Source: Candidatus Colwellbacteria bacterium (GTDB lineage Bacteria > Patescibacteriota > Minisyncoccia > UBA6257 > Colwellbacteraceae). Taken from it: DNA of 64,000 nucleotides. The notes under the pieces are model-generated. The model was not told where the DNA came from, did not search any database, and saw nothing but the letters and a program-made list of their open reading frames with translations. A program made the position numbers and the translations under genes. Every line of letters starts with the position of its first letter. Position 1 is the stretch's first letter. Shown here one piece after another: positions 26,998 through 57,488 of the stretch. The stretch covers positions 73,031 through 137,030 of the forward strand of contig JAQTUL010000001.1 of NCBI GenBank assembly GCA_028710275.1, read 5' to 3'.

Positions 26998-27055
26998 GAT
27001 TAAAAGTAATTCTATTTATTTTAAAGACTATATGTAATATAAACAAGTTGACATC

Positions 27056-27664
27056 ATGTCATATGACGACGACGAAAGACCGGGAGACGATCTTGATTTC
27101 GGGGGTGGAGGGGATTTTGAATATGACGACGAAGATATCGAAGAATACAAAACTCCAGTTGACGATCTAGAATACGGAGATGGTGGGGGAGACGATGAAT
27201 TTGTTGCTGATACCGATAGTAGAATAGATACTGGTGCTGAATGGAATGATTACGGTGATGGTGCATCAAAGTCGCGCGTCGGTATAGCAAGAGCTGCAGA
27301 TATAGATGAGGATATCGGAACTATGATGGTGGATGAAAAATTTAAGAAAATGGAACAGATGTCGAGAACACCAGAGGATATGTTTAGAATACTCGCACGA
27401 AAAATTAAGGAGCGATATGATATATCGGATGGAGTTTATGACGATTCGCTTCGTATTATGCAGTATCTGAACAAGCAGAATAGAAAGTTAAAATTCAAAA
27501 ATCCCGCAGCAATCATCTTTGCATTACTGTGTATAAAGGACACCAAAATAGACAATAAGTCTATCGATAAAATCTACGACGAGATGGCAAAACATGAGAA
27601 GATGAACAAGACTGATCTATTGAGATATATCTTCTTTGTTCAGGACGTGTTGAAAAATCGGTAA
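27056..27664 (+). CDS. Acidic hypothetical protein
   Basis: D/E/G-rich N-terminus. A perfect hairpin sits at its stop. Confidence 0.45.
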   Translation: MSYDDDERPGDDLDFGGGGDFEYDDEDIEEYKTPVDDLEYGDGGGDDEFVADTDSRIDTGAEWNDYGDGASKSRVGIARAADIDEDIGTMMVDEKFKKMEQMSRTPEDMFRILARKIKERYDISDGVYDDSLRIMQYLNKQNRKLKFKNPAAIIFALLCIKDTKIDNKSIDKIYDEMAKHEKMNKTDLLRYIFFVQDVLKNR

Positions 27665-27691
27665 TTATACTCCTTGAGAGTGTATAATTAC
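27661..27691 (+). terminator. 3'-end hairpin of gene 27056..27664
   Basis: 'gtaattatac'...'gtataattac'. Confidence 0.5.
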
Positions 27692-27717
27692 TATTCGGAT
27701 GTGGTGAGTGGAGTGAT

Positions 27718-28191
27718 TTAGAACACGTACTTGATGATCAAGACGATAAACAGTACCATGAGAATGAAGTAAGGAGAGAATGTCCGATTTGGAACATTCA
27801 CATTCACTTCGTGAGGATTCTTTCCTAGTAGATTCTTGGACCAACGGGAGGCTCCGAATTTGAGAAGCAGACGGACAGACTCATCGTCCGTCTGCTTGTG
27901 AAGAGGGGTGTTACCGTACAGGTTGACAGCGTTTGGAGATGATCCATAGATCAACAGAAGCTTAACCACTTCGGGACATTTCTTGTAGTGAAGAGGAGTA
28001 TTTCCCATCTTAGTTTTCGCGTTTGCATTCGCTCCCTGTTCCAGAAGATACTGAACAACCTCGGGGTCATTCTGGATATGAAGACATGTCTCACCAATCT
28101 CCGAACGGTCGTGAACAGAACACTTCTGCATGGTCACGAGATTCTGAACCTGGTTCAAAGACAGATTCGGAGTGAGAAGATCGAGAGACAT
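27718..28191 (-). CDS. Ankyrin-repeat protein with a C-terminal transmembrane helix
   Basis: Three ANK units ('GNTPLHYKKCPEVVKLLLIYGSSPNAVNLYGNTPLH') and a C-terminal 'FILMVLFIVLIIKYVF' helix. Confidence 0.7.
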   Translation of the reverse strand: MSLDLLTPNLSLNQVQNLVTMQKCSVHDRSEIGETCLHIQNDPEVVQYLLEQGANANAKTKMGNTPLHYKKCPEVVKLLLIYGSSPNAVNLYGNTPLHKQTDDESVRLLLKFGASRWSKNLLGKNPHEVNVNVPNRTFSPYFILMVLFIVLIIKYVF

Positions 28192-28559
28192 CGTGCGTTG
28201 AATAGAGTAATCGGATGTGGAGTGATATTCTCTCCTGATATTAGGAGAAATTCATTTTTTTTACATATGATCACACTCAAGTATCACCAAATCCAAGATC
28301 TATTGTCGGTGGATATCTATAGGTTTAATCTCTCCGAATACAAGCATACATCATCCATAGAACACCTTTTACACTTGAAATTTATACTCTATTCGCATAA
28401 TTTACCAAACATTGATTCAACTTAAGAAAGAACGATACAGGGGTTATCTAGTGGATGAATACAAACTCATGTTTACGCTGGTATCTAAACAAGATAAATT
28501 ACAGGTATTCTTTTCTGGATCTTTATTGTGTGTTAGAATATTCAGACGAGTCCATCACT

Positions 28560-29705
28560 TTAATCTATACAACCCGCTCTAGCAATATCCACTTTTCTCC
28601 CAATTCCCCCTCCATTCCCATCATCTGGACCACAATACCACTTCCAGAAACACTGAGACTTGTCCTTTGTTAGAAGATATAATCGGTACCAGTTTCTGAT
28701 TCGTAGAGATTTCACCTTGGATCTAAATTTCTTGAGTCTATTCAAGTGTATCTTCTGAAGTGATGGGTCATGTTTAAATTTGTTCTCGCTCAACCCCGTC
28801 CAACTCCATGGTTTCTCCGGATGGGCGAGAACAAACTCGGGAGTGATGTTCGGATTCTGGCTCAACCCCACCCAATCCCATGGTTTCTCCGGATGGGCGA
28901 TAACAAACTCGGGAGTGATACTCGGATTCCTGATCAGCCACTCCCAATCCCATGGTTTATCTGGATGAGCGAGAACAAACTCGGGAGTGATGTTCGGATT
29001 CTGACTCAACCAATTCCAATCCCATGGTTTATCTGGATGAGCGAGAACAAACTCGGGAGAGATGTTCGGATTCTGACTCAACCAATTCCAATACCATGGT
29101 TTCTCCGGATGAGCGAGAACAAACTCGGGAGTGATACTCGGATTCACACTCATAGAATCCCAATTCCATGGTTTCTCCGGATGGGCGAGAATAAATTCGG
29201 GAGTGATACTTGGATTCTCACTCAACGAATACCAATTCCATAGTTTCTCCGGATGAGCGAGAACAAACTCTGGAGTGATACTCGGATTCTCACTCAACGA
29301 ATACCAATTCCATAGTTTCTCCGGATGAGCGAGAACAAACTCGGGAGTGATGTTCGGATTCTGGCTCAACCAATACCAACTCCATGGTTTCTCCGGATGG
29401 GCGAGAACAAACTCTGGAGTGATACTCGGATTCATACTCAACCACTCCCAACTCCATGGTTTCTCCTGATGAGCGAGAACAAACTCGGGGGTGATATTCG
29501 GATTCATACTCAACCACCCCCAATCCCATGGTTTCTCCGGATGAGCGAGAACAAACTCGGGAGTGATGCTCGGATTCATACTCAAATCAGACCAACTCCA
29601 TGGTTTTTCCGGATGAGAGAGAATAATCAATTCTAATAGAGACATATGGTGAAGTAGTACAAATAAAAGATGTGAAATTAGGGATGTGGTGTTGGGAAAA
29701 ATCAC
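28560..29705 (-). CDS. Tandem-repeat protein (about 13 copies of a 22-aa 'NPxITPEFVLAHPEKPWxWxxLS' unit)
   Basis: The protein repeat is nearly perfect and is mirrored by 66-bp DNA repeats. Confidence 0.6.
   Translation of the reverse strand: MIFPNTTSLISHLLFVLLHHMSLLELIILSHPEKPWSWSDLSMNPSITPEFVLAHPEKPWDWGWLSMNPNITPEFVLAHQEKPWSWEWLSMNPSITPEFVLAHPEKPWSWYWLSQNPNITPEFVLAHPEKLWNWYSLSENPSITPEFVLAHPEKLWNWYSLSENPSITPEFILAHPEKPWNWDSMSVNPSITPEFVLAHPEKPWYWNWLSQNPNISPEFVLAHPDKPWDWNWLSQNPNITPEFVLAHPDKPWDWEWLIRNPSITPEFVIAHPEKPWDWVGLSQNPNITPEFVLAHPEKPWSWTGLSENKFKHDPSLQKIHLNRLKKFRSKVKSLRIRNWYRLYLLTKDKSQCFWKWYCGPDDGNGGGIGRKVDIARAGCID
28780..29640. repeat. 66-bp tandem repeats encoding the 22-aa 'PEKPWxW' units
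   Basis: 'ccatggtttctccggatg(a/g)gcgagaacaaactcgggagtgat' recurs about 13 times. Confidence 0.7.
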
Positions 29706-29726
29706 TTTTTATGTTATACTGGTATC

Positions 29727-29755
29727 AGTAATTTATCTATAAACAAGATAAATTA
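29727..29755 (-). terminator. Hairpin (10-bp stem) 100 nt 3' of the RPB1 exon-3 stop
   Basis: 'gtaatttatc tataaacaa gataaattac'. It is part of a 25-bp element that is repeated at 28484-28506. Confidence 0.4.
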
Positions 29756-29854
29756 CAGGTATTATGTTGATGATTGTTTAATATATTCAAGACAATCATC
29801 CTACAAAACAAGTGTGTATGATATGAATAGTTGGTAATATTCATTTTAGTAACT

Positions 29855-32770
29855 CTAGACCAGGACACTTTTCCTCGTATTCTGTTTCTCGACCCAATCA
29901 TCCCACTCAACCTCTGTGTTCAGATGGTTTGCGATATTCTTCACATTAGTGAACGACATCTTGCTATCACTCACTCTCACCATTCGCGCGGGATCAAAGT
30001 TGCGTCCATAGTTGAACTGGATAACCATGTTCTTTGAGTTCACAACCAATCCATCACTGTAGGACTTCACGAGATCCTCCATCTTCTTCACCAACTTTCG
30101 TTGAATATATCCAGACTGAGCAGTATCAGCAACCTGAAGACCATTCGCCAACCCAAAGTTAAGTGTACTAGGAATCGTAAGATCGTATAGTTTTTCATGT
30201 CCATCACAAGACATTTTTTCAATTGATACTATTTTATCCAATACGATATCGTTATGAACTTCGAAGTGTCGGTGAGGATTTTTCGGGGTCTTAATCATGT
30301 TCAACTTCTCTTGTTTCACAGAGTCAATCATGGGAATGGTCTCAGCAAACTTCTTAGACCACACATTTGAGATCTGAAGTCTATATGAAGGTTGAATAAC
30401 TTTTGTTCCCAGATTATTTTTCTTAATCTGTACCTTAGAAATCTTACCGAAAATACCAAGAGTGTTACACAATGTACTGATACCCTCAATAAGTTTAGGT
30501 GAAGAAGTTCCAGCCACAATCATATTTCTCTCAACAGCACCATCTCCTGAAAAATATCCGTTCAGGAGGGAGACGATGAATTCTTTAGGAGCTGTATATG
30601 CTTCATTAGGTACAAATTTATTTTTTGCTCCGTGACCAACAAACTTATCAAGGAATTGAGACAACACACTCGATCGACCTCGAACATCGCTTGTAAATCC
30701 TTCGATACCGTTAATTTTAAAGTTTTCAGAAAATTCAATCGAGTGTTTGACAAACCATCCTTTAACAAACTCACGAATTGTATCGTCGTTGTTGGTTATC
30801 TGAACATAATGTCCGTCAGTATTCCCTTCGGCCAGGTACAATCCGATAAAGAGACCGTTGTCAGAATTTAATTCGAAAGAATCCGGGATTTTAATATCTG
30901 TTCTACATCCTGAAAACGGATAGATATATCCATCTTTAATGTTATCGACATTAGATCTAGTTATCACTCGTTGAAGTTTCGCCTTTGACGTATATGGTAC
31001 AGTGAATGTTGATCCGTTATTCTCTTTCCACCAACCTCTCGGAATATGAAATTCTGTCATAGCATTCTCCATGCTGGAAACAGCTACATTAAACTCAGTT
31101 CCATAAACATATTTATCTTTTGGTAGATACTTGGACATATCCACATAATTTTTAACGATTGGGATGTTCATCAGATTCATTGTCACAGGGAGATAATCAC
31201 CCACCTTAATATCTGGAGTATAGATCTGTTCCAACACTCTCTTCTCTTTGTTCCATACAAGAAGAGATTTCGATTCGGCAACCACAACACTTCTCCCACC
31301 ATACGTTGTTACTTTATAGATATTTTTACTAGGGTCATGTCGTGTAGCATGGGAGATCTCCTCCCATGAGACGTTACCATCATTATCCGTAGTTGAAATG
31401 TACGTTTCTTTTTCCAACTCTAATGTCTCCATATTCTGTTCGTCTTGATGAACAATGTTTTTATTCCCATTCATCAAATCATCAATCCATTCTCCGATTT
31501 GTACATATTTAGCATCACCATCTTCAATGATGATGATAGTTGTTTCTTTTGTTACAGATTTCACTGCTGTGTCGATAACACCTTCTCGACCACCCTCTGC
31601 GTGGAAGAAGAACTCTTGAACAGTCAATCCCTCCATGTAACAGTGAGCTACAAATCCTCTGCTTTCATAAAGTAGTCGTCTCTCCATATCCTCTTGTTCC
31701 GGAGTTGCATCTTCCGGATACTCACCCTGTGTCTTGGAGTATGTAGGATTAGTTCGTCCACCAAATGTGAGAGGGATACGCTTACCCTCAACGTTCTGTT
31801 GTCCGACCAGAACTCGGATCTGTGAGTTGTTCACATAGCTACCTTTGGATCCCGCACTGATCATCACGTTCAAGGAATTTTCATACTCGAACTCGTTCTT
31901 GGTGATCAGCTGACCAATTGTGGTTGCGCCGTTGAGCGCGTTATTGACCTTTCGCTCACGCAACTCCGGATCACTCTCTGACGTCTCAATACTTTGAGCC
32001 TCCATAAAACTCTTGGATATCTGGTTCTGAACATCCGTGACTCTGATTGGAAGACAGTCCTCAATTCCGATAGAGAATCCTCGAGCCTTCAGACAGTGAT
32101 TGATCAACCACTGGTAGTAACTGACAAAGTCGATTGTGATCTTCGCTCCATACTCCTTCTCCAGTTTGTGTACAATGGAACTGTGACTGTCACCGAGAAC
32201 CGACTTGTTGAGAATACCCTTCAACATGACACCTCGAACAATTTCAACACCGCTCGGTTCGAACGTGTATTCGAAGTCATCGGGAAGAAGATACGAAAAC
32301 AGACAGTGTCCAGTGTACATGTAATCATCAATCTCCGCCTCAGTAAATTTTTGCCATCGCAAGACGCTCTTGATATGATCCATCTTACGAAAAATGTAAT
32401 CCTCAGTATCCTCTTCGTATGTGATCGAAGAATGTTTTCTCTTTTCGAGTTCAGAGATCTTGGACATAACAGCCGTTCTGTTTCCCGAAATAAACCAATC
32501 GTCCACGCATGTCAGAGCATCATTGAAGAGGACACGATCGATGTAGTTTCGCGGGTTGAACTTACGGACAGTCTTTCCGTTGACAGTCTCGTTGTAATAG
32601 AATCCACGGGTGAAGAGATTTCCACCGGTAAGCGCATCCTGTGTGATTGAGAGTAGAAGACGCGCGTTTTGACTACTCTTCAAGAGAGCAGCAGTTGAGG
32701 ATAATAGTAGTAATTCTGCCACAGCCTCATACGACTGCGGAATATATAAATTCATCTCGTCCCCATCGAA
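29855..32770 (-). CDS. RPB1: DNA-directed RNA polymerase largest subunit (RPB1), exon 3, containing an intein; the frame ends about 90 aa after the intein host site
   Basis: Begins 'FDGDEMNLYIPQS' (the NADFDGDEMN active site). Contains '...HAEGGREGVIDTAVK[intein]TAQSGYIQRKLVKKMEDL' and 'VIQFNYG'. The track ORF start at 32833 is intronic sequence read through. Confidence 0.85.
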   Translation of the reverse strand, partial: FDGDEMNLYIPQSYEAVAELLLLSSTAALLKSSQNARLLLSITQDALTGGNLFTRGFYYNETVNGKTVRKFNPRNYIDRVLFNDALTCVDDWFISGNRTAVMSKISELEKRKHSSITYEEDTEDYIFRKMDHIKSVLRWQKFTEAEIDDYMYTGHCLFSYLLPDDFEYTFEPSGVEIVRGVMLKGILNKSVLGDSHSSIVHKLEKEYGAKITIDFVSYYQWLINHCLKARGFSIGIEDCLPIRVTDVQNQISKSFMEAQSIETSESDPELRERKVNNALNGATTIGQLITKNEFEYENSLNVMISAGSKGSYVNNSQIRVLVGQQNVEGKRIPLTFGGRTNPTYSKTQGEYPEDATPEQEDMERRLLYESRGFVAHCYMEGLTVQEFFFHAEGGREGVIDTAVKSVTKETTIIIIEDGDAKYVQIGEWIDDLMNGNKNIVHQDEQNMETLELEKETYISTTDNDGNVSWEEISHATRHDPSKNIYKVTTYGGRSVVVAESKSLLVWNKEKRVLEQIYTPDIKVGDYLPVTMNLMNIPIVKNYVDMSKYLPKDKYVYGTEFNVAVSSMENAMTEFHIPRGWWKENNGSTFTVPYTSKAKLQRVITRSNVDNIKDGYIYPFSGCRTDIKIPDSFELNSDNGLFIGLYLAEGNTDGHYVQITNNDDTIREFVKGWFVKHSIEFSENFKINGIEGFTSDVRGRSSVLSQFLDKFVGHGAKNKFVPNEAYTAPKEFIVSLLNGYFSGDGAVERNMIVAGTSSPKLIEGISTLCNTLGIFGKISKVQIKKNNLGTKVIQPSYRLQISNVWSKKFAETIPMIDSVKQEKLNMIKTPKNPHRHFEVHNDIVLDKIVSIEKMSCDGHEKLYDLTIPSTLNFGLANGLQVADTAQSGYIQRKLVKKMEDLVKSYSDGLVVNSKNMVIQFNYGRNFDPARMVRVSDSKMSFTNVKNIANHLNTEVEWDDWVEKQNTRKSVLV
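30125..31558 (-). mobile_element. Intein (478 aa) with a LAGLIDADG homing-endonuclease domain inserted in RPB1 between AVK and TAQSGY
   Basis: N-terminal 'SVTKETTIIII' (block A). 'ISHATRHD' (block B). LAGLIDADG motifs 'LFIGLYLAEGNTDG' and 'LLNGYFSGDGAV'. C-terminal '...YDLTI...NFGLANGLQVAD' then +1 Thr. Removing it restores 'DTAVKTAQSGYIQRKL' at canonical length. Confidence 0.75.
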
Positions 32771-34061
32771 CAGGGGGATCCAATATCTTTCAATATCGGC
32801 CGGACTATATCTTAAGCATGTCGGATGACACACCCATTCCCGTTTAGTCTCTGAACCTTCTCCATATCTTACGAGTTAGGAGCTTGGCTGCGGATTGTCC
32901 ATTGTTCATCTTTTACGTTTTTACTGTTCCGTAGGTCGTTACCCCCGGTCTCACTCAAGGATTTCTCAATGAGGATAGTAGTAAAAGCTTTAGGAGTTTC
33001 CCGCAATTTGAGGATGTCGCGATACCTTCATATCACTAGCAAGTTATATTAAAGAACAAATTACACTGTTTACCCGATGAAGTATTTTGTTCAACTTCAT
33101 CAGCAGCTTGCTGTTTCAGACTTCGATAGTTAAAAGAGAGTCAAAATTATCGGAAACAAAGACCTTATCTTTTGTTGACAAGGCGTAACAAAATTCCAAA
33201 GATATATCGAGAGCATCAGATAAAGAGATGTTTTTACTTCCAAAATTTATTCTCTTTTCTTCCGATTGTTTAGTCATGATGTCTGTGCGAACATACACCG
33301 CAACTGTATAGAACGTTTTGTATTTGAATGGTGTCACTCTTAGTTTTGATATGTTCATTCCGGAAAATAGATCTAGTTTATCTTGGTATTTGGGTTTATC
33401 GATATAACTGATTATTTCAGTATCATCGCCCTTTATTTTGTTGATAAACCGATTCGCATTCTTTACACATAACTCAAAGGTTTTGTGTTTTCCGGAATTA
33501 AACATTACACGAACTTTGTTTTCGTGACCTTCTATTTGAAGCATCACTCTTACAGAGTCGTATACACCATTCTTTTTTATAGGACGCTGAATGATCTTTT
33601 GAATATTCATTTTCTTGTACTCTGAAATCTTTACAGACATTGTTTTGAAGCCTTCCCCTCCCTTCTGAACATTGTATCCGTTTGGAATCATCGAGTTGAG
33701 ATCTTGAATATAAAAACATTCACGAGAATCCGCTTGAGATAGTTCACACATCTCAAGTTCTTCTATAGAGAAGTCTTCGTCACCATACTTTCTAATATCA
33801 ACGTGAAGAGGAGACGACGCTCCCTTCTTTGCTCTAAAAAGATGCCCTTTGAATCTCCCGTCGATACCATATGTTGAAAAATATCCTCTACAATCCTTTA
33901 CACGTTCTAGATAGTTACGAGTTTGTCCTACAAACACTTTGCCAGTTGTTTTACTGGTAATTTTATAAATGATGCTCTTGATTATCTTTGACATTTTATC
34001 ACACTGTAGATCTTTGTTATATGTTTAACGATAATGTTTAAATCGATTTTTAAAACGGTTA
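32771..34061 (-). mobile_element. Group I (IC1/Tetrahymena-type) self-splicing intron 2 in RPB1, carrying a GIY-YIG ORF in its P1 loop
   Basis: P1: the exon end 'ucagau' pairs with the IGS 'gucuga' located just after the ORF. Core: 'caaauugcgggaaa', 'cgcagccaagcuccuaa', 'agacuaaa', 'uaagauauaguc'. P9: 'ccgauauuGAAAgauauugg'. Omega-G lies before 'uucgaugggg'. Splicing gives ...KTYNSD|FDGDEMN. Boundaries are inferred to within a few nt. Confidence 0.7.
33116..33994 (-). CDS. GIY-YIG homing endonuclease (intron-encoded)
   Basis: 'IYKITSKTTGKVFVGQTRNYLERV' (GIY...YIG), a conserved Arg, Glu and 'NGYN'. It lies entirely within intron 2. Confidence 0.8.
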   Translation of the reverse strand: MSKIIKSIIYKITSKTTGKVFVGQTRNYLERVKDCRGYFSTYGIDGRFKGHLFRAKKGASSPLHVDIRKYGDEDFSIEELEMCELSQADSRECFYIQDLNSMIPNGYNVQKGGEGFKTMSVKISEYKKMNIQKIIQRPIKKNGVYDSVRVMLQIEGHENKVRVMFNSGKHKTFELCVKNANRFINKIKGDDTEIISYIDKPKYQDKLDLFSGMNISKLRVTPFKYKTFYTVAVYVRTDIMTKQSEEKRINFGSKNISLSDALDISLEFCYALSTKDKVFVSDNFDSLLTIEV

Positions 34062-34199
34062 ATCTGAGTTATAAGTCTTACACTGGGCCAAATTCATTCG
34101 AATACATCTGACCGGTTTATGATTGTTGATACCTGATGTATTTTTGATAATTTTTAGTTTTCTCGCAATCATGGATCCCTTATGGAGAGTTGGTTGTCG
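34062..34199 (-). CDS. RPB1: RPB1 exon 2 (46 codons: RQPTLHKGSMIARKLKIIKNTSGINNHKPVRCIRMNLAQCKTYNSD)
   Basis: Encodes the conserved RQPSLHKMSMM...RLNLSVTSPYNAD segment. It is in frame with exon 1 (…ALFG) and exon 3 (FDGDEMN…). Confidence 0.65.
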
Positions 34200-34564
34200 C
34201 AAACCAGTTTCCAGTCTTTCGAACTGAAATTGGACTATATCTTAAGCATGTCGGATGACACACCCATTCCCGTTTAGTCTCTGAACCTTCTCCGTATCTT
34301 TTACGATTTAGGAGCTTGGCTGCGGATTGTCCATTGTTCATCTTTTACGTTATTACTGTTCCGTAGGTCGTTACCCCCGGTCTCACTCAAGGATTTCTCA
34401 ATGAGGATAGTAGTAAAAGCTTTAGGAGTTTCCCGCAATTTGAGGATGTTGCAAATAGATGATCTATTCACTAGTAGATTATATCTGGGGACAATTTACA
34501 CTGTTTATCCCGAATAGTATATTGTCCAACTATTCGAGCAGTCTACTGTTTTCGGCCAACATTA
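34200..34564 (-). mobile_element. Group I intron 1 in RPB1 (365 nt, no ORF), homologous to intron 2
   Basis: P1: 'uucggu|' pairs with the IGS 'gccgaa'. It shares the same about 300-nt core as intron 2 (94% identical over plus 34237-34456 versus 32800-33018). P9: 'cagttcGAAAgactg'. Omega-G lies before 'cgacaacca'. Confidence 0.7.
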
Positions 34565-36394
34565 ACCGAACAATGCAATATCTCCATTTCGAATATGTCG
34601 TTCGACGATATCTCCAACTTGAACTTTGAAGAATCTCTTTTTCGATGGAACGATGTTCTTGAGTTCCTTTCCTTGACGAAAGACACGATCGCCGGGTTGA
34701 ATCTCGAACTTACCCGATTTTTGAAGCTCAAGATCGGGGCTGATAGTACGATCTCCTCGACGGATGACATCTCCAAGCTCAACTTGAAAAGTAATCTTCT
34801 CCGGGAGTTTGAATCCTTTCAAGATCTTTCCACCACGAGCAATCTTGTCCGTGGCGAGAAGAGTGATTGCGCGACCGGTTGCTGCCTTGAATTTTTCAGG
34901 GTAGATTTTCTTTCCTTCACGCAACACAATATCATCTTGTTCCAGAGAGAATCCACCGGTTTCATATGTTGCGCGTGTCTTGAGATTTTTCTTCAGATCA
35001 TAACTATCCATTTCCTTAGTCGCAGGATTGAGTCTTTTCACATAGTTCGCCTTTCCAGTGTTGACCAGTTCGTTCATCGCTGCGAGATTGCGATCAAAGA
35101 CTCGTTCAGGGAATGTGAGCTTTTCAGCAAACTCCTCGGGAATAGCAATCTCATCTGCGCGAAGACTCGGATCGGGATCGATAACTGTACGTCCAGTAAA
35201 GTCGTTACGTTTTCCTGAGAGATTCTGACGGAACAGTCCTCCCTTTCCATTCATACGCTCACGAATACACTTGATCGGACGTCCAGTGATCTGACGAGCC
35301 TTGAATTGATAGTTGTACATGAGAGTTCGAATATGGAAAAGTAGACCATCCTTCTTCTCTGCCAACTCCTTCTCTTTCAAGGGTTTCACTCCCGACGTAT
35401 GATTTTTGATCGCGTTACATCGTTTGATGATCTCCACGTATTTCGAGGTCAGATCATCGTCACAAGGGCCACGATTTGTTTCGACGAATGGACGCGCACA
35501 GATAGGAAGGACAAGTAGAGAGGTGATGATGAAATCCACAGGATTGATCTCTCGTCCCTTCTCATTCAATCCCATGTTCTTGAGATCCTTCGCCTTGATC
35601 GATCCGAGAACGTTCTCGATCTCCAAAAACGTCATCTCTGTCTTCTCAGACTTCTCACCCTTGTACTTGTAGTACTTGTAGTCCTCGACGTAGTACGACC
35701 ACTTATCACACTCACACTTTGAGTTTGGACACGCCTTCACTTTGGCTGTATAATCGATGATCGCTTTCATTCGACTCGCTCCTCGAAGACTGAACATATT
35801 CAGGAGTTTCATCTCCTTCTGAGTGATGAGAAGAGATGCACACTCACCACAGAAACAGTTCAGATACATCAAAATCTCCTCTGGGTACATAGGATGCGCG
35901 ATGGGAATCGGAAGTTCAATGTGACCGAAATGTCCTGTACACTTGTTATTCGATCCGTTACAAGTCACACAGAGGGCATGATTCTTCAGAACTCCCATAC
36001 GCGGATCATACACCGTACCTTGACCTGAGAGTTTACTGTCGGTGATTTCACATACTGAGATCTTCTTCACCTCCCGAGACGAAAACATACCGAAAGCGAT
36101 TCCTGTGAACTCCGTGGTATTTTCACACGAGACGATATCATCTTCGGTTATCTCCAGAAAATCCTCCTGGTCATCATCCTCCTTATTCCATTCAGTCTCC
36201 GCATCCTCGAGAATCTCTTCTCCTTCTCCAACGAGAAAATCTCCTGCATCCTCTTCCTCCTCGATAACTATCTCCGCTTTCTTTATCTGAGAGGCAATCC
36301 TCTTCTTCATATCGGAAATCGAGATATTGGACGACATCGTGGATCGTGTCTTCTGAAGCTGTAAAAATAGGGAAACTGTTATAGTAGAAATCAT
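34565..36394 (-). CDS. RPB1: RPB1 exon 1 (N-terminal clamp / active-site region)
   Basis: 'CVTCNGSNNKCTGHFGHIELPIPIAHP' Zn-binding region, 'GKGGLFRQNLSGKRNDFTGRTVIDPDP', and the end '...RNGDIALFG'. The in-frame taa at 34562-34564 is intronic. Confidence 0.85.
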
Positions 36395-39238: not shown

Positions 39239-42200
39239 TCACTTTATTTCACCAATAATTCTCACGGCGCGTTCGATTTCCAACACTCTATTTGGGAATG
39301 TTATTCCGGAATCTCTTACGTACTTACTCTTCAATCCTGATTCGTCATCTGCAAAAAACATATGTAATATCTCGTCTTCTGATGGAGAAAGAACGCCCGA
39401 CATATCGGAACCCTCTAGTGTCCTCTGTACGTAACGAAGTGATTTGTCTTCTGTCTGATAGTTCAGATTCATGAGATTCTTCTCATACTTAATCTTACCA
39501 GTGATAGCATCAACTCTTTCTGCCGCGGAGTACCATGTATCAACCTGTGTTCTGATGCTATCTTTAACTATAAGGTTATCTACCTCCTCCAGTTTGGACA
39601 GATACTGTTCTTTTATAGTATTTTTTTCTCTTCCATCTCTAGATTTATTTATCTGTACTCTAATCCAATCGATCCCTTGTGTGATACCTCCAAGTCCTAT
39701 CGACCCGAATATACTACCTACCATATTTGCCACATAATTAGATATAGTTGAAGACCATGTTTCAGTTACAGTTGGTTCTCCACGGGCTTTAATATCGGTA
39801 AAAACGTTTCCATTATTCTTGTTGTAGTCCTCTGTCATCTGGTGAAGCTTTTCATATTGTTTAGTCTCCTCTTCGAAGAGAGAATCTTTCTTCGTTAACA
39901 GTTCACTCTCTCTTTTCAGATATTCTTTAAAATTACTTCTCAAGAGAATTCCTGTTATGTAATCCATGTGATACGTCTTTTTCGATAACAGATACAATAC
40001 ATGTGGATTACTCCAATCTAAATCCTTACCCTTCAAATGTTCGTCAAACATTCTTCCCGAATTCATAACCGTACTGCTCTGTTTCATAACAGTATGTAGT
40101 AGATTTACAGATTTACTACTCATTTCGAACTTCGATAATCGACTTCGGTATTCAGGTGTAATCCACATCAGCATCAAGTTATTAGCTATAATAGTTTTCT
40201 TGTCTTGGGTAGTTCCCTCAATTCCGAGATTGGAGATTTTTTGATAGATATCATCTGTGATACTATCGATCTCCTTGATCACCTCCTCTGGAATAGATGT
40301 TACAAAAGCATTACGATTCAGACATGAACTTTGAGGGGGATCCGGACAGTCGTATTGAACCAGTCCAAAAGCATCTGATAGAACCTTTACACCAGTCATC
40401 AGATTTATAACCTTATCAAATGACTGTATCTCTTGAAGTTCCTCTCCTGAGTAGCTAGATGGAAATGAACTATCATCACCGAAAGCTTTCTCATAGATAA
40501 TATCATAATCATAGTCTGTTGTTGTATCGATTCCGATATCGAAGTCAATCTGCCTATCTATCTCCTTTACACGTTCGAACCCAACACTCTTCTTCAAACT
40601 CGAGAAAGCCTGTACAAATCTCTTATCCTCTTCTGTTACTGGTTTCATCTCGGGAACGAGAACCTGGATATGTTTGATCTCCGATGTAACTAGAGTATCA
40701 ACTGTAGATAGTGTACGTAACTCCTGATCACGAAGATTTTGTATCTCTTGTAACCCTTTAATATCTCGGGGGTTATTCTCCTTCAGACTCTCCTCCATAG
40801 TCTTCAATTCCTGTAGACGACGAATACCCTCCCTCTTTTTAGTCATACCGTATCCGACAATATTTCGCATTCCCTTTCGAATCTGTTCGACTGTGTAGTT
40901 TTCAAACTTATCGTAAATACCGGATAGCCATCCACGACTTTCACTACTCTCAACAACAACCTTCTTTTCACCAGTTAATCGATACTCTTCAAGAAGTCGA
41001 TCGATCTCTGGATCCAGAGATCCATATCCTCCTTCACCGGTTTTAACCTTTTCAATGATCGATGGATCGACTAGATATCGAGTTGTTGGGATATCTTTGA
41101 GAAACAGATCCTGTGTCTTTTTAATCGATGATAACCTCTTATTCGATTGATAGAATGAATCGATATCACTTCCACCCAGAGCCATTTCCAAACTCTGTTG
41201 TCTGATCACTATTTCGTTTATCGCCTGCATGTATTCAATATGATCATGTAACCCTTCATCCTTGTTGAATCGTTGAACAACATCGGTATACATAGTATTG
41301 AGATTCTCTAGTTTCTCAGATGCGTTGTCCGGAAGATTAGCGAGAATATTTTTGGAACTGGCCTCCAAGATAGCGATATTCTCTGTGTACTCCTTCATCC
41401 GATTATGAACGATATTATATTGCGTTCTCGCATCGGATTCAAGTGCGGCGAGTGCTGTCGGATCAGCTCGGTTGATAAAGGGGATGAACTTGTTTATCAC
41501 AATACTCGCTGTCTGCATTTTTGCATTCTCGTTGACCATCTCGGTGGTGGGATTATCCCATAGTCTTTCGTTCTTCTCGTAGTATTTCTGAATAAAGTCT
41601 ATCTGAGAGACTTTCGATTGTGACAGTTCAATCTTGTTGACTACATCATCTAATGCTTTCGAAGCAATCCTCAGATTGTTCTCCATTGTTACTCTCTGGA
41701 GAATTAATTCTCTCTGTTTTTCGAGTAACTCACCTACCGGATTCACTTTACTCATTTTTGAATTGAGAGAGACGAGTTTGAGACGAATCTCCTCCTTGTT
41801 ATCAAACAAATCCCCTTTCTCGTCGTTAAAGAGTTTCTGATTTGCAATCTCTATCGCCCGATTTCTGATGTCCATCTCTTTTCGTTCATCAATGACTTTC
41901 CTGATCTTCTCTTTGTCTAATTTCACCCCCTTGTATGAATTGGATTCTGATTCGAGCGTCATTATCGTATCGACATTAGACAAGACATCTATCATCGATG
42001 AGCTCATTGCTTGACTGAAATACTCATCCATCACTAAACGATTCGATAACCATGTGAAGTTACTATCGTATATAAAACTTTTTCGTCCATAGTTAACCTC
42101 AACCCATTCGATCATTCCACCAGCTACCTTATTTTTCATTCGGTTTACACTCTGATCGATCCATTCCACAATCAGATTAGATGAGAGATAATGATATGTA

Positions 42201-44245
42201 TAGAGAATATTCTTAGCTGCGCGTTTAGAAAGCCATCTACCACTCATCTTACCGGCTTTAGTATCTATCTCTCTGTACTTCTCAACCGTTTTCGGATCTT
42301 TGGCGTGATTTAACATATTGTCCCACAGACTATTGAGAAGAACAGTTCCCGCTCCAAATCCTATGACTCCGTAGACTATCGAGGTTTTGGCTAGATCTAG
42401 ATACTGATCTAGACTTGTTATCTGTCCTGATCGTCCGGAATACATAGCTAAGAGAGTCGGTGCAATAACCGATAGATACATCTGAGTGTGAGATTTGAGA
42501 AAATTAGTGGTCTTTGATGTCATCCAATTAACAGGAATACCCAAGAAGAATTTAGCTATCTTCTTATCCTGATACAAATTCAGAAGAATCTTCTTTGCAA
42601 ACTCATAAGCTGAGAGATCCTTGGTTGTCATCTTAATATAGTTCAGCATAGTTACCAGAACAGTTTCCATTCCTCCAAAGACTGAAATATTCTTTATTAT
42701 CGTTTGATGTATCTTGTCCCATGACAGAGGAGTGACTTCGGTTAATCGATCAACCATCGATATAAGTGTCTCTTTCGATGGTAAACCGTAACCTGTTTCC
42801 GACATATCCTTGTTTATAAAGAGACTGAAAAATTCTCTAAAGTACGGCATGACATTGATAAAGGAATTATAACATGCGACCATACAGAAGATTCCCGGTA
42901 TAGCATAAACTCCAAACTTCCAAACTATGTTACAAGTGTTGGCTACTCTCTTAACTATAGCCAATGGAATGGTTACTGGGTTGAGATATTTCAAAGGTCC
43001 TTCATTCAGGTATTTTAACGGTCCTATTGGAACAGAGGAAATCTTTGTGTAGATAGTAGTAAAGACACACTCCGGAAGATTTGCAATCCAATCTAGAGGA
43101 AGCATGACCTTTGATAGAATTCTGGAAATGGTCAGGGCTTCTTTTGTTGGCTCCATAAGATTTTTTATTGTCTCTCTATCCATACCCTGACCATAAGTTT
43201 TTGCTAGATCATCCGCTCTATGCTTAGAGAGTCTCGGATCGATAAACATCATTGTGACATCAAACACAAGACTAGCTGAAACTACAAATCCTCTACCGAG
43301 ACTGAGATGTGTTGCTGCCATATCTTTCACACAATCCATACATCCGATGAGAGGACTCTTCCACAGCGTATACATAATATTATCCCATGTGGTTTCACCT
43401 GAATCCTCTTTTATATTTTGATATGTGTCGTAAGCACTAAACATCATATAAATCGGAAGTGATCCTAATATCGCGCTTCCTCCAGAAAGTCCCATCGATG
43501 TAATGGTTGCTGAGACTACCCAGGTCTTTGCCGATTTGTATACAACACCCCCCATTGTGAAGTGGAAGAATTTGTACATGGAATTAACGTTGTTAAAATA
43601 CGATAGTGCCGAAGAGTTCTGATTGTAGAGAACTGAGTTACCCACATCATTAAAAAACTTTCTAAGTGTTCGAGTCTTCTTGTTAACAAAGATAGCCGAT
43701 GATTTCATTAGTATTTTAGTATCACCCTTTTGGATAAGATCGTTTATTTTTTTCTCCTCTGCATACTGATCATTATCTGCTTTGACCGCTCGGTTAAAAG
43801 ACCTGCGGAAGAACTCAATCTTATCATTAGAATCCTTTAATGTTGAGACGATTGTTGAGGCTAATTCCGGTTGAACAAATCTGTAGTCCCGAAGACGATT
43901 GATATCCGGTGTGTAAGTGTATCTGTTTGTGTTTAGAAAATCCTTCATCTCTCTTTTTGTTGTGATATCTAATAACTCCGGATAGATTCTCTCTTTACGG
44001 GTGAAAGCTTTAGTTGCCCATCCAAATACAGAAAACGATTTATTTACAGGAACTATATCCTTCTCTATCTCTCTTAGTTTCTCCTCTACTTTATTCATGA
44101 TAGAAATACTCTTGATTGTTGATGTCTCTTCAACAAAGGTACTCTCTCTAATAAAAGATAAGACATCATCTCCTCCTATTGAGGAAAGGAGAACCGATTT
44201 CTTTTTATCGGAAGACGAACTTTCAGTAATGGTCCCTGACGACAT
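39239..44245 (-). CDS. Very large (1668 aa) membrane-associated protein with a coiled-coil C-terminal half
   Basis: Several hydrophobic helices in the 230-700 region, followed by long heptad-rich segments. No catalytic motif. Confidence 0.5.
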   Translation of the reverse strand: MSSGTITESSSSDKKKSVLLSSIGGDDVLSFIRESTFVEETSTIKSISIMNKVEEKLREIEKDIVPVNKSFSVFGWATKAFTRKERIYPELLDITTKREMKDFLNTNRYTYTPDINRLRDYRFVQPELASTIVSTLKDSNDKIEFFRRSFNRAVKADNDQYAEEKKINDLIQKGDTKILMKSSAIFVNKKTRTLRKFFNDVGNSVLYNQNSSALSYFNNVNSMYKFFHFTMGGVVYKSAKTWVVSATITSMGLSGGSAILGSLPIYMMFSAYDTYQNIKEDSGETTWDNIMYTLWKSPLIGCMDCVKDMAATHLSLGRGFVVSASLVFDVTMMFIDPRLSKHRADDLAKTYGQGMDRETIKNLMEPTKEALTISRILSKVMLPLDWIANLPECVFTTIYTKISSVPIGPLKYLNEGPLKYLNPVTIPLAIVKRVANTCNIVWKFGVYAIPGIFCMVACYNSFINVMPYFREFFSLFINKDMSETGYGLPSKETLISMVDRLTEVTPLSWDKIHQTIIKNISVFGGMETVLVTMLNYIKMTTKDLSAYEFAKKILLNLYQDKKIAKFFLGIPVNWMTSKTTNFLKSHTQMYLSVIAPTLLAMYSGRSGQITSLDQYLDLAKTSIVYGVIGFGAGTVLLNSLWDNMLNHAKDPKTVEKYREIDTKAGKMSGRWLSKRAAKNILYTYHYLSSNLIVEWIDQSVNRMKNKVAGGMIEWVEVNYGRKSFIYDSNFTWLSNRLVMDEYFSQAMSSSMIDVLSNVDTIMTLESESNSYKGVKLDKEKIRKVIDERKEMDIRNRAIEIANQKLFNDEKGDLFDNKEEIRLKLVSLNSKMSKVNPVGELLEKQRELILQRVTMENNLRIASKALDDVVNKIELSQSKVSQIDFIQKYYEKNERLWDNPTTEMVNENAKMQTASIVINKFIPFINRADPTALAALESDARTQYNIVHNRMKEYTENIAILEASSKNILANLPDNASEKLENLNTMYTDVVQRFNKDEGLHDHIEYMQAINEIVIRQQSLEMALGGSDIDSFYQSNKRLSSIKKTQDLFLKDIPTTRYLVDPSIIEKVKTGEGGYGSLDPEIDRLLEEYRLTGEKKVVVESSESRGWLSGIYDKFENYTVEQIRKGMRNIVGYGMTKKREGIRRLQELKTMEESLKENNPRDIKGLQEIQNLRDQELRTLSTVDTLVTSEIKHIQVLVPEMKPVTEEDKRFVQAFSSLKKSVGFERVKEIDRQIDFDIGIDTTTDYDYDIIYEKAFGDDSSFPSSYSGEELQEIQSFDKVINLMTGVKVLSDAFGLVQYDCPDPPQSSCLNRNAFVTSIPEEVIKEIDSITDDIYQKISNLGIEGTTQDKKTIIANNLMLMWITPEYRSRLSKFEMSSKSVNLLHTVMKQSSTVMNSGRMFDEHLKGKDLDWSNPHVLYLLSKKTYHMDYITGILLRSNFKEYLKRESELLTKKDSLFEEETKQYEKLHQMTEDYNKNNGNVFTDIKARGEPTVTETWSSTISNYVANMVGSIFGSIGLGGITQGIDWIRVQINKSRDGREKNTIKEQYLSKLEEVDNLIVKDSIRTQVDTWYSAAERVDAITGKIKYEKNLMNLNYQTEDKSLRYVQRTLEGSDMSGVLSPSEDEILHMFFADDESGLKSKYVRDSGITFPNRVLEIERAVRIIGEIK

Positions 44246-44822: not shown

Positions 44823-44890
44823 GTTTGATGACCCATTTTATCGTTAACATACAATCATTTTTAATATTGTTTATTAACATTATAGACAAT

Positions 44891-45301
44891 ATGAGTATAT
44901 CTCTTGATCAGAAGGCATGGGAATCGCTTCCGAAAACAAATCCTAATTTTTACAAAGTCCATTCACAAACGGATATCATGGCTGATCTGTTTGAGATCGT
45001 TGAACGTGATACACCCTTCTACAGATTCCCATCACATGAAGGTGGATATAACGAGAAGGAGAGAGATATTATCAAAGATTGGTTCATGTCTGTTATTGAA
45101 GGAAAAGATTATTCTGCGAACGTAAAGGGGATGTTCGACTGTTTCATGGATAGACTACAAGTTAAACGAAATCTCAAACTCTTACAAACATACAAAGCTA
45201 AGATCTACTCCAAACTTAAAGAGCATCAGACTCTCGATCGGGAGGTGAGTCTGTTAGCCTCTAAATCTGAGACTAATTTGGAAGAGATTCGTGAGTTTTG
45301 A
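44891..45301 (+). CDS. Hypothetical protein (start taken at the internal ATG at 44891)
   Basis: Begins 'MSISLDQKAWESL...'. The upstream part of the track ORF is hydrophobic junk that overlaps the neighbouring gene's start. Confidence 0.4.
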   Translation: MSISLDQKAWESLPKTNPNFYKVHSQTDIMADLFEIVERDTPFYRFPSHEGGYNEKERDIIKDWFMSVIEGKDYSANVKGMFDCFMDRLQVKRNLKLLQTYKAKIYSKLKEHQTLDREVSLLASKSETNLEEIREF

Positions 45302-45431: not shown

Positions 45432-46325
45432 CTATTTGAGAGTCTCCTCGATAATCTTTTTTCTGAAAACATTATTGTCCTTGGTGAGTCGTTTTATCTC
45501 GACATAACATTTATCGGCTCTTTGTTCTTTAATATCATCGGACGATGTTTTATCATCATCTTCACTACCGTTATCATCACTTCCGTCATCACTACCGTTG
45601 TCGTCGTCGCTTCCATTATCCTTAAATTTATAAATATTATCATAGTGTTCCTGGTTACGGTTTTTGATAGCGTCGGATACCATTTGTGTTATTCTCTTTG
45701 CTTTCGGATCGATAATAACATCTTTTGAGTCATCTTTATATTTTAACACCTCTCGAGATTTATCAGACACGATCCATGGGACCTCTCCGTTATGGGAATT
45801 TTTGACAAAATCAAGAAAAAATTTAGCAGCTCCTATTTGTCCTTGAAGAAAAAGAGTTTCATCGAAATTATCCGCGGCAGCTTGGGTCAGCTGTTCGAGA
45901 GTCGTATTGAATTGTGGTATATTAATTGTATTGGTTGTCGTTGTATTCTTTGGTTGTAAAGCAATCTTCTCAACACAGTCTTCCGCTTTAGTGTGTAGTT
46001 TCTCGAATATCTCACACCGTTTAATTTCTCCTTCAAGTTTCGTATTCAATATTGATATTTCATTTCTGAGTCTGTTTATCTCGGCATCTTTTTCCTTGAT
46101 AATTTGGTGTAGAGAATCTTTGTTATTTTTACATACGGCTTCGTGTCTGGTTTTATCATTAAGTCTCGTAAAATATTTGTCACAGAATTGACATGATATT
46201 TTAATAGGCTCTACAATAACGTTCAATTTCTTTTGGATTTCTATACAATAGTTCGCTCGTTTTTGATGCGAAATTAAAGCACTTGACGAAGAAAATGTAT
46301 TATCGCAATACCCACATCTATTCAT
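45432..46325 (-). CDS. C2H2 zinc-finger / coiled-coil protein (paralog of 16542..17390) with Asp/Ser-rich tail
   Basis: 'CGYCDNTFSSSSALISHQK' and 'CQFCDKYFTRLNDKTRHEAVC', then a coiled coil and a conserved C-terminal domain shared with its paralog. Confidence 0.65.
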   Translation of the reverse strand: MNRCGYCDNTFSSSSALISHQKRANYCIEIQKKLNVIVEPIKISCQFCDKYFTRLNDKTRHEAVCKNNKDSLHQIIKEKDAEINRLRNEISILNTKLEGEIKRCEIFEKLHTKAEDCVEKIALQPKNTTTTNTINIPQFNTTLEQLTQAAADNFDETLFLQGQIGAAKFFLDFVKNSHNGEVPWIVSDKSREVLKYKDDSKDVIIDPKAKRITQMVSDAIKNRNQEHYDNIYKFKDNGSDDDNGSDDGSDDNGSEDDDKTSSDDIKEQRADKCYVEIKRLTKDNNVFRKKIIEETLK

Positions 46326-56750: not shown

Positions 56751-57488
56751 TTACGCTCGATACGTGTAGATGTGAAGAATACGACGGTCAGGTGAATTAC
56801 GCTCCAAATCAGTTTGATACCCGAATTTCGTCAGTAGCATACGCGCAGATGTGAGATGAAGGGTGTTGTTCTCAATAACTTCGCGACGATAGTCGTCATT
56901 TGTTTTCATTTTATCGTAGATGTCATCAACAAGATCACGATATACTTGAGTGAGAGATTTGTAAACTTTCTTCTTTTGGTACGTGTGAAGGACTGGAGTC
57001 TGTGTTGAGAGAATGATAGACCCCTTGATATTCAATTCTGTTACACGATTCTTACACAAATCGAGGTTTTCATGATCATCAAAGAGCTCGGTATTAGAAT
57101 CTTCTTTACTCTCTTCGGTTTGTTCTCTGAGAGAACGACCGAAATTCTCATGTACATATTCATCGTCATCCCATTCATGTTCCCATTCACTATCAACGAT
57201 TAACTCATTCACTTCATTCTCGGTAATCTCTTCACACCATCGACTTCCACTACCATCAATGATCTCCATACATCCCCATCCATCCGATACGCAGATCTTA
57301 ATATATTGACCCATGACGATTGACAAAGAATCGTTCTTATTATAGAGGTCCTTTTGACTGTGGATCTTAATATCTTGAGAGATAAATTCTCTGATGCTCT
57401 TCTCGGTGTGGAATGTAACGAAACGGAATCGATTCTCCTCTGTGGAGTTCTTCGCTGTGAGAAGGAGATGAATCGGAAAAGTAGTCAT
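56751..57488 (-). CDS. Hypothetical protein
   Basis: 245-aa ORF with an acidic central segment. Confidence 0.45.
   Translation of the reverse strand: MTTFPIHLLLTAKNSTEENRFRFVTFHTEKSIREFISQDIKIHSQKDLYNKNDSLSIVMGQYIKICVSDGWGCMEIIDGSGSRWCEEITENEVNELIVDSEWEHEWDDDEYVHENFGRSLREQTEESKEDSNTELFDDHENLDLCKNRVTELNIKGSIILSTQTPVLHTYQKKKVYKSLTQVYRDLVDDIYDKMKTNDDYRREVIENNTLHLTSARMLLTKFGYQTDLERNSPDRRILHIYTYRA

Follow-up and report, generated by a model that had tools for sequence, protein, structure and literature searches.

How does the gene for the largest RNA polymerase subunit, RPB1, come to end shortly beyond the bridge helix, when every multisubunit RNA polymerase has a catalytic core to which the trigger loop and the C-terminal elements of cleft and clamp belong? 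The question is raised by a 64 kb stretch of DNA, referred to here as the window (contig JAQTUL010000001.1 of assembly GCA_028710275.1, positions 73,031 to 137,030), which was deposited under a bacterial name and carries genes of giant-virus type, among them an RPB1 gene on the minus strand that stops at position 29855. An earlier note on this DNA had proposed either that the gene is split, with its remainder elsewhere, or that a further intron or a trans-splicing event lies at this point. We conclude, with a probability of roughly 0.8, that the largest RNA polymerase subunit of this virus is encoded by two separate genes, the N-terminal one of which is located in the window.

Conservation of the RPB1 end point

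The RPB1 reading frame terminates with the residues '...EKQNTRKSVLV' followed by a TAG codon at 29857-29855 on the minus strand. The C-extein junction of an intein located in the bridge helix (T at 30124) is separated from the last codon (29858) by 267 nucleotides (nt), corresponding to 89 amino acids (aa), in agreement with the approximately 90 residues reported in the earlier note. Beyond the TAG, many stops are encountered in all three frames. The Pfam Rpb1_5 domain is covered only to approximately position 67 of the 267 positions of the model, a value measured in relatives (1-67/267).

This end point is not peculiar to the window. In what follows, proteins of relatives are designated P0001 and so on, and their contigs L002 and so on. 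A search with the intein-free product of exon 3 detected many proteins of 430-500 aa which cover 96-100% of the query, and the same end point is observed in at least 10 relatives: P0004, P0005, P0001, P0006, P0008, P0013, P0027, P0056 and P0100, with identities to the window of 92%, 85%, 76%, 75%, 61%, 52%, 44%, 35% and 34%, respectively, and P0015. These sequences were drawn from independent JGI, ENA, Logan and NCBI assemblies made from different samples. The N-terminal genes of the relatives end shortly past a conserved '(I/V)xxxLNxExE' motif, with tails of approximately 3-25 residues that vary in both length and sequence, a pattern typical of a real C-terminus and not of an intein junction or the edge of an exon. 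Although P0006 and P0001 are devoid of the intron(s) or the intein found in the window, they terminate at the same point. The gene that follows the stop differs from one relative to another: L006 has an ankyrin gene at this place, L004 has a KilA-N gene, and L002, L364 and L365 have others. The TAG at 29857-29855 is thus, on the basis of the sequence and of the end point common to relatives, where the N-terminal RPB1 gene truly ends. Orthologs ending at a single position, which the earlier note had held to speak against its proposal, are indeed what is observed, yet they constitute the main support for a split gene.

A different situation was noted in one sister group, with P0034, P0039, P0048 and P0050 (L367 4569-6989), in which the open reading frame (ORF) equivalent to exon 3 continues for approximately 300 aa past the conserved LNxDxEW. 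This extension corresponds to no Pfam family and is not RPB1-like.

The C-terminal module as a separate gene in relatives

Coding sequence for the trigger loop and C-terminal portion of RPB1 gave no significant match in the 64 kb window by four approaches: tblastn with the yeast Rpb1 C-terminal sequence (an approximate query) combined with motif regular expressions; tblastn with two viral C-terminal genes; tblastn with 15 such genes; and hmmsearch --max with a 32-sequence profile against all stop-to-stop segments. The best match, located on the D5 primase ORF, had an E value of 0.11 and is not significant. The statement of the earlier note that these domains are not encoded in the window is thus borne out.

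The missing module exists as a gene of its own in the sister clade. On two contigs whose N-terminal genes end at the break position of the window, a second gene is present downstream on the same strand: at 18739-20016 on L010, the P0056 contig, encoding 425 aa and located 6.2 kb downstream of the 858-aa N-terminal gene, and at 16619-17986 on L011, the P0100 contig, encoding 455 aa and located 8.6 kb downstream of the 848-aa N-terminal gene. In both cases 6-8 unrelated genes lie between the two, the second gene matches Pfam Rpb1_5 only, and the trigger loop is present (GEKQTQSTLNSFHSSG in L010 and GERQTQMTLDTFHSAG in L011). Both C-terminal genes align with archaeal RpoA'' (A'') up to its last residues and with yeast Rpb1 up to residue 1443; as the latter alignment stops there, a heptad-repeat tail is absent from them. 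C-terminal genes of the sister clade start with Met at profile positions 1-6 and possess their own conserved N-terminus.

Genes of this kind are abundant. At least 1008 clusters of stand-alone C-terminal genes were detected in metagenomes with the L010 and L011 proteins as queries, and a motif scan of IMG/VR identified 72 contigs with a stand-alone C-terminal gene, nearly always with no N-terminal part nearby. An N-terminal part is absent in 149 of the 150 best 50%-identity C-gene representatives; a two-gene RPB1 is hence the usual state across a very large clade of environmental viruses and not the property of a few isolates.

Two further observations concern these genes. P0328 (1319 aa), the one remaining representative of these 150, shares 47% identity with P0056 over the N-terminal part and is a fused protein in an otherwise split clade; its two parts were either fused again or never separated. 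Stand-alone C-terminal genes are also very often interrupted near profile positions 92-95, in the trigger loop, by insertions of 1-3 kb (L181, L184, L197, L204, L215, L218, L221, L234, L235 and L242, as well as P0185, P0196, P0222, P0241 and others), several of which are marked by Pfam as inteins. This site looks like a mobile-element hot spot.

The relationship between the window and the sister clade was derived from a rough neighbour-joining tree of the N-terminal part (379 columns, 100 bootstraps, archaea as outgroup). The window lineage groups with two related groups (bootstrap 95), and this set is sister to the clade with demonstrated C-terminal genes (bootstrap 99). Together, the window lineage and the split clade are set apart from unsplit viral and eukaryotic Rpb1 (bootstrap 85).

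A two-gene model and its alternatives

In the model we propose, translation of the N-terminal gene would end at the TAG and its transcript would probably end at the hairpins just beyond it. The remainder of the subunit, from the trigger loop through jaw and cleft to the clamp core and lacking a heptad tail, would be supplied by an independent gene elsewhere, of approximately 430-700 aa and with its own start codon, and the two polypeptides would assemble non-covalently in the polymerase, as do RpoA' and RpoA'' in most archaea. We infer that a second gene elsewhere in this genome is by far the likeliest arrangement, because the trigger-loop module belongs to the catalytic core and because the N-terminal gene is conserved and remains in frame through two introns and an intein.

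Several results weigh against this model. Searches with proteins from the window edges yielded only Logan contigs, which extend the sequence by 8 kb on the left (L008) and not at all on the right. Neither in the window nor in this 8 kb flank could a C-terminal gene be detected, nor was one found within approximately 10 kb of the N-terminal gene in L002, L004, L006, L092, L364, L365, L366 and L367, which represent the sub-clade of the window itself or its sister groups (approximately 215 kb examined over nine genomes, including the window). None of the top 120 stand-alone C-gene matches could be linked to this sub-clade, and the IMG/VR motif scan gave no match on GVMAG-M-2140918012-1, its only member in that collection. 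It is the sister clade and the literature alone that provide direct evidence for a second gene, and the placement beside that clade depends on a rough neighbour-joining tree. A scan of bacterial and archaeal genomes for the C-terminal gene returned, among the matches listed, mainly archaeal rpoA'' and bacterial rpoC; the C-gene motif had at least 120 matches in JGI metagenomes, and among those listed none is from a sample of the sub-clade.

Joining of the two halves at the RNA level would reconcile the early stop with a single full-length RPB1: either trans-splicing of RNA or a further intron, of group I, group II or spliceosomal type, would lead from approximately 29855 to a distant 3' exon. 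Two group I introns already reside in the same gene, and the Marseilleviridae join two RPB1 ORFs across a group I intron (PMC5413956). However, Rfam (E <= 0.1) is blank in 27000-29855 on both strands, whereas the upstream introns are detected at 93 bits, and the stretch preceding the stop has no fixed length or sequence in relatives, which would not be expected at the edge of an exon. The relative of 92% identity has a hairpin within 25 nt of the stop and then the next gene, the C-terminal genes of the sister clade begin with Met and their own conserved N-terminus, and a downstream exon was not found in 30 kb; we therefore consider joining at the RNA level very unlikely. Joining after translation by a split intein is an idea that the resident intein, and the inteins often carried by the C-terminal genes of relatives, might encourage, but it is excluded by lengths, as only approximately 15 variable residues are left beyond the last conserved motif of the extein and an N-intein needs approximately 100 aa or more. 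The C-terminal genes of relatives also open directly with conserved RPB1 sequence and no C-intein, and no Pfam intein domain is found at the ORF end, leaving this possibility with practically no weight. Of the two explanations in the earlier note, the split gene with its remainder elsewhere is thus supported, by a stop conserved in every relative examined and a separate gene several kb away in the sister clade, a gene that is likely to exist in this genome as well, while a further intron or trans-splicing event is not, there being no Rfam match after the stop, no uniform tail, no room for an N-intein and no downstream exon in the window.

The failure to find a C-terminal gene linked to the sub-clade, in the approximately 215 kb around the N-terminal gene of nine genomes or by the motif scan on the metagenome-assembled genome (MAG) that represents it in IMG/VR, would also be expected of a truncated RPB1 with no viral partner, in which the C-terminal module had been lost in the sub-clade or replaced by an unrecognisable or host-derived part. 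This appears unlikely: the lost elements belong to the catalytic core, the N-terminal gene is well conserved with its introns and intein kept in frame, indicating that it is in use, the sequence covered is a small part of each genome (likely several hundred kb), and the C-terminal gene is unlinked in the sister clade too. An artefact, in which a frameshift, misassembly or chimeric contig cuts the gene, might be suspected of a metagenome-assembled contig deposited under a wrong bacterial label, but is already refuted by the repetition of the end point in at least 10 independent assemblies from different samples and assemblers, and its probability is negligible. The sequencing frameshift considered in the earlier note, which would restore a long C-terminus, is at odds with the closure of all three frames past the stop and with the lack of RPB1-like coding in any frame of the window. 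The two-gene model therefore remains the preferred explanation of the early stop.

Structure of the N-terminal gene

The RPB1 N-terminal gene of the window extends from 36394 to 29855 on the minus strand and consists of three exons, two group I introns and one intein, the mature N subunit of approximately 1149 aa reaching from the clamp to just beyond the bridge helix. Boundaries between exons and introns were derived from tblastn and protein alignment with P0006 (75% identity, no introns, no intein) and are accurate to a few nt. Exon 1 (34565..36394, minus strand) comprises 610 codons from an ATG at 36394 and encodes Rpb1 domains 1 and 2; the corresponding ORF, 34562-36394, matches Pfam RNA_pol_Rpb1_1 (3.1e-54) and Rpb1_2 (8.4e-18), and its product is annotated at NCBI as a 591-aa version. 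Exon 2 (34062..34199, minus strand) encodes 46 aa, RQPTLHKGS...KTYNSD, and is aligned by tblastn with residues 279-324 of P0006 at 85% identity. Exon 3 (29858..32770, minus strand) encodes the end of domain 2, domains 3 and 4 and the start of domain 5, and includes the intein. Accordingly, the end of Rpb1_2, Rpb1_3, Rpb1_4 and the start of Rpb1_5 are detected by Pfam on the ORF at 29855..32833 (minus strand), together with an intein containing LAGLIDADG.

Group I intron 1 occupies 34200..34564 (minus strand; Rfam RF00028 at 34210-34516, 93.2 bits, E 1.8e-23) and group I intron 2 occupies 32771..34061 (minus strand; RF00028 at 32781-33081, 93.2 bits). The two introns have the same Rfam score, are located 46 codons apart and share the peptide 'CHPTCLRYSP' in their 3' parts. 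A GIY-YIG-like ORF at 33116-33994, with a weak Pfam GIY-YIG match (2.6e-4), is present in intron 2 only, and P0006 lacks both introns.

The LAGLIDADG intein (30125..31558, minus strand; 478 aa) interrupts the bridge helix between DTAVK and TAQSGYIQ, its junctions having been set by comparison with the intein-less relatives P0001, P0004 and P0006. Pfam matches are to Intein_splicing (2.3e-13) and LAGLIDADG_3 (6.5e-11). Inteins usually carry a penultimate His and a terminal Asn. The first residue of the RPB1 intein is Ser and it ends '...GLQVAD' before the +1 Thr, both of these residues thus being replaced. Because of its placement in the bridge helix, the intein must presumably still splice despite this atypical end.

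Sequence 3' of the stop codon

A spacer of 209 nt (29646..29854, minus strand) containing two hairpins, as judged from inverted repeats and folding, separates the RPB1 stop from the next gene. One inverted repeat is a 9 bp pair, 29769-29777/29792-29800, with 100% complementarity, and the other is a 16 nt pair, 29723-29738/29746-29761, with 88%. The 120 nt past the RPB1 stop fold better than mononucleotide shuffles (z = -2.85). However, z values below -2 over the 120 nt after the stop are obtained for 34% of the gene ends in the window, for example those of 3804-6032, 44828-45301, 45432-46325 and 56751-57488. As approximately one third of gene ends are equally structured, the RPB1 hairpin is nothing unusual in this genome. 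The idea that it forms a special signal was rejected, downstream sequence not being significantly more structured than upstream sequence (Mann-Whitney p = 0.32, a comparison confounded by most spacers serving both). The spacer is probably the 3'-end region of the transcript, by analogy with the 'hairpin rule' for 3'-end formation validated for the Marseilleviridae (PMC5413956), and the frequent hairpins at gene ends in the window recall this rule of other giant viruses.

The gene that follows (28560..29645, minus strand) is a repeat-protein gene unrelated to RPB1, as judged from its ORF, Pfam and its PEKPWxW... motif. It is composed of 24-aa 'PEKPWxWxxLSxNPxITPEFVLAH' units in tandem, with a period of 72 nt, 11.4 copies and 88% matches. 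The order of stop, hairpin and unrelated repeat-protein gene described in the earlier note is therefore confirmed. By blastn, the region 28260-29855, comprising the repeat gene and its flanks and extending 1.6 kb past the stop, is absent from the 92% relative L006; it represents a recent insertion or deletion directly after the RPB1 stop. L006 has a perfect 12-bp hairpin 25 nt past its RPB1 stop, followed by the ankyrin gene, and a weaker copy of this hairpin is found in the window at approximately 28232-28255.

Identity of the virus and content of the window

The gene set of the window is of giant-virus type and includes a D5-type primase-helicase with an intein, an AAA ATPase, TFIIS, RNase III, cap and 2'-O-methyltransferase domains and EsV-1-7 cysteine-repeat proteins; G+C content is approximately 38%. 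By exact look-up, its proteins correspond to NCBI MDD4930591 to MDD4930624, on a source contig of 152,625 bp in a MAG labelled Candidatus Colwellbacteria bacterium. From the numbering of the locus tags, the window would probably be the last 64 kb of that contig. As the genes are giant-virus ones, the bacterial label on this contig is a binning or labelling error and should be replaced.

Affiliation was examined by a rough method, in which the structure predicted for the relative P0004 (predicted local distance difference test score, pLDDT, 76) was searched against viral predicted structures (BFVD). The best fold matches are Marseillevirus LCMAC201 (474 aa), Pithovirus LCPAC104 (905 aa), LCPAC101 and LCPAC302, other leading matches being invertebrate iridescent virus 3 (IIV-3), Solivirus, Clandestinovirus and a ranavirus. 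Mimivirus-like, asfarvirus and poxvirus proteins rank below these pitho-, marseille- and iridovirus matches. Identity of the window lineage to named viruses in this search is only 24-31%. Viruses related to pitho-, marseille- and iridoviruses form the order Pimascovirales in current usage. The window is best described as Nucleocytoviricota DNA, nearest to these three groups and of Pimascovirales type, an approximate assignment. A mimivirus affiliation was rejected, the early-promoter motif AAAATTGA being depleted in the window (2 seen vs 10 expected).

Other features of the window were also noted. The D5-type primase-helicase at 52017-56492 (minus strand; AEP_C962R, PriCT_2, D5_N) likewise contains an intein (Pfam Intein_splicing at residues 518-1013), which is lacking from the enzyme of the relatives L011 (892 aa) and L364 (962 aa). 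The ORF at 9669-11687 (minus strand) fuses Methyltransf_15, a cap guanine-N2 methyltransferase-like domain, to a poxvirus-type poly(A) polymerase regulatory / 2'-O-methyltransferase domain. The ORF at 39239-44245 (minus strand), located a few genes upstream of RPB1, encodes a protein of approximately 1670-1710 aa with no Pfam match, and its position is kept in relatives of 85% and 61% identity (L002 1-3843; L365 1-4382).

Comparison with known RPB1 systems

RPB1 is a standard marker for giant-virus classification. For annotation, our results mean that an RPB1 N-terminal gene stopping at this point is complete and not broken, and that the second half must be looked for in another place and joined to it before phylogeny.

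A two-gene RPB1 is already known from some iridoviruses and cedratviruses, of which the window is probably a further case. In invertebrate iridescent virus 6 (IIV-6) the core gene in question corresponds to two ORFs (176R and 343L), where other iridoviruses have one (PMC1783846, Table 6; Eaton et al.), and the virion proteome of cedratvirus includes 'RPB1' (107 kDa, gene 191) and 'RPB1 (Domain 5)' (78 kDa, gene 493), detected as separate proteins (PMC12724359). In these viruses the largest subunit is listed as two unlinked ORFs, as is proposed for the window, which differs from them in an N-terminal gene that adds two group I introns and an intein, and in the low identity to named viruses given above. 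In fold and sequence, the N-terminal part of the window is nearest to proteins of pitho-, marseille- and iridoviruses, several of them of N-only length (474, 833 and 905 aa).

In the Marseilleviridae, RPB1 consists of two neighbouring ORFs with a group I intron across which they are joined (PMC5413956), an arrangement that the second explanation of the earlier note would call for. In this related family RPB1 is thus encountered as separate N- and C-terminal ORFs, as is proposed for the window, and group I introns in the gene are a feature in common. However, the Marseilleviridae ORFs lie side by side and are separated by an intron that Rfam recognises, whereas the introns of the window lie upstream within the N-terminal part, no intron-like match follows its stop (Rfam, 27000-29855) and no C-terminal ORF is nearby.

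Unsplit giant-virus RPB1, represented by 79 IMG/VR contigs (L093-L171), is a continuous protein of approximately 1520 aa with 30-33% identity to the N-terminal part of the window. It shares homologous domains and catalytic motifs with the window, as does eukaryotic Rpb1, but is one continuous ORF and forms a separate clade in the tree. Its bridge helix and trigger-loop region are approximately 215 residues apart, compared with approximately 155 summed over two viral genes; the combined viral subunit lacks approximately 60-90 residues that eukaryotic and mimivirus-like Rpb1 have at this place.

The closest parallel to the break itself is found in archaea, in which RpoA' and RpoA'' (Rpo1N and Rpo1C) are divided, as here, between bridge helix and trigger loop, the positions agreeing within approximately 10-25 residues. 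The comparison was made with the A' ends of L013 and L015 and PDB chains 4qiw_A, 2pmz_A and 36ro_A. Archaeal A' ends 76-80 residues past the GREG motif (L013, L015) and viral N-terminal genes end 80-100 residues past it; the tail of the window aligns with residues 800-880 of 906 of Thermococcus A' and 777-853 of 880 of Sulfolobus Rpo1N. On the other side of the break, A'' and the viral C-terminal genes are alike in beginning approximately 65-70 residues before PGExVG..AAQSIGE and in finishing at the clamp-core end with no heptad tail, A'' matching residues 10-422 of the 425-aa viral protein. Unlike the archaeal genes, which are adjacent in one operon (L013, L015), the viral genes are 6-9 kb apart or unlinked, and a C-terminal gene adjoining the N-terminal gene was seen in neither the window nor nine relatives. 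The N-terminal part of the window also branches with viral, not archaeal, sequences in the neighbour-joining tree.

We found no paper on the break position in viruses or on its archaeal match, which may still have been published. The coincidence suggests that this is a place at which the largest subunit generally tolerates being cut. Because a fused form exists in some archaea and in some related viruses, the break shared with archaea may be convergent. An unlikely reading, prompted by the break position and by the lack of the approximately 60-90 residues mentioned above, is that the pitho-, marseille- and irido-like clade instead kept an archaeal-type two-gene architecture from the ancestor of its polymerase and that the genes were fused later in ranaviruses, IIV-3 and a few more; the coincidence in position fits retention and repeated fission at a permissive surface loop alike and cannot tell them apart. 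If true, a retained archaeal-type architecture would be relevant to the disputed origins of the RNA polymerases of giant viruses and eukaryotes.

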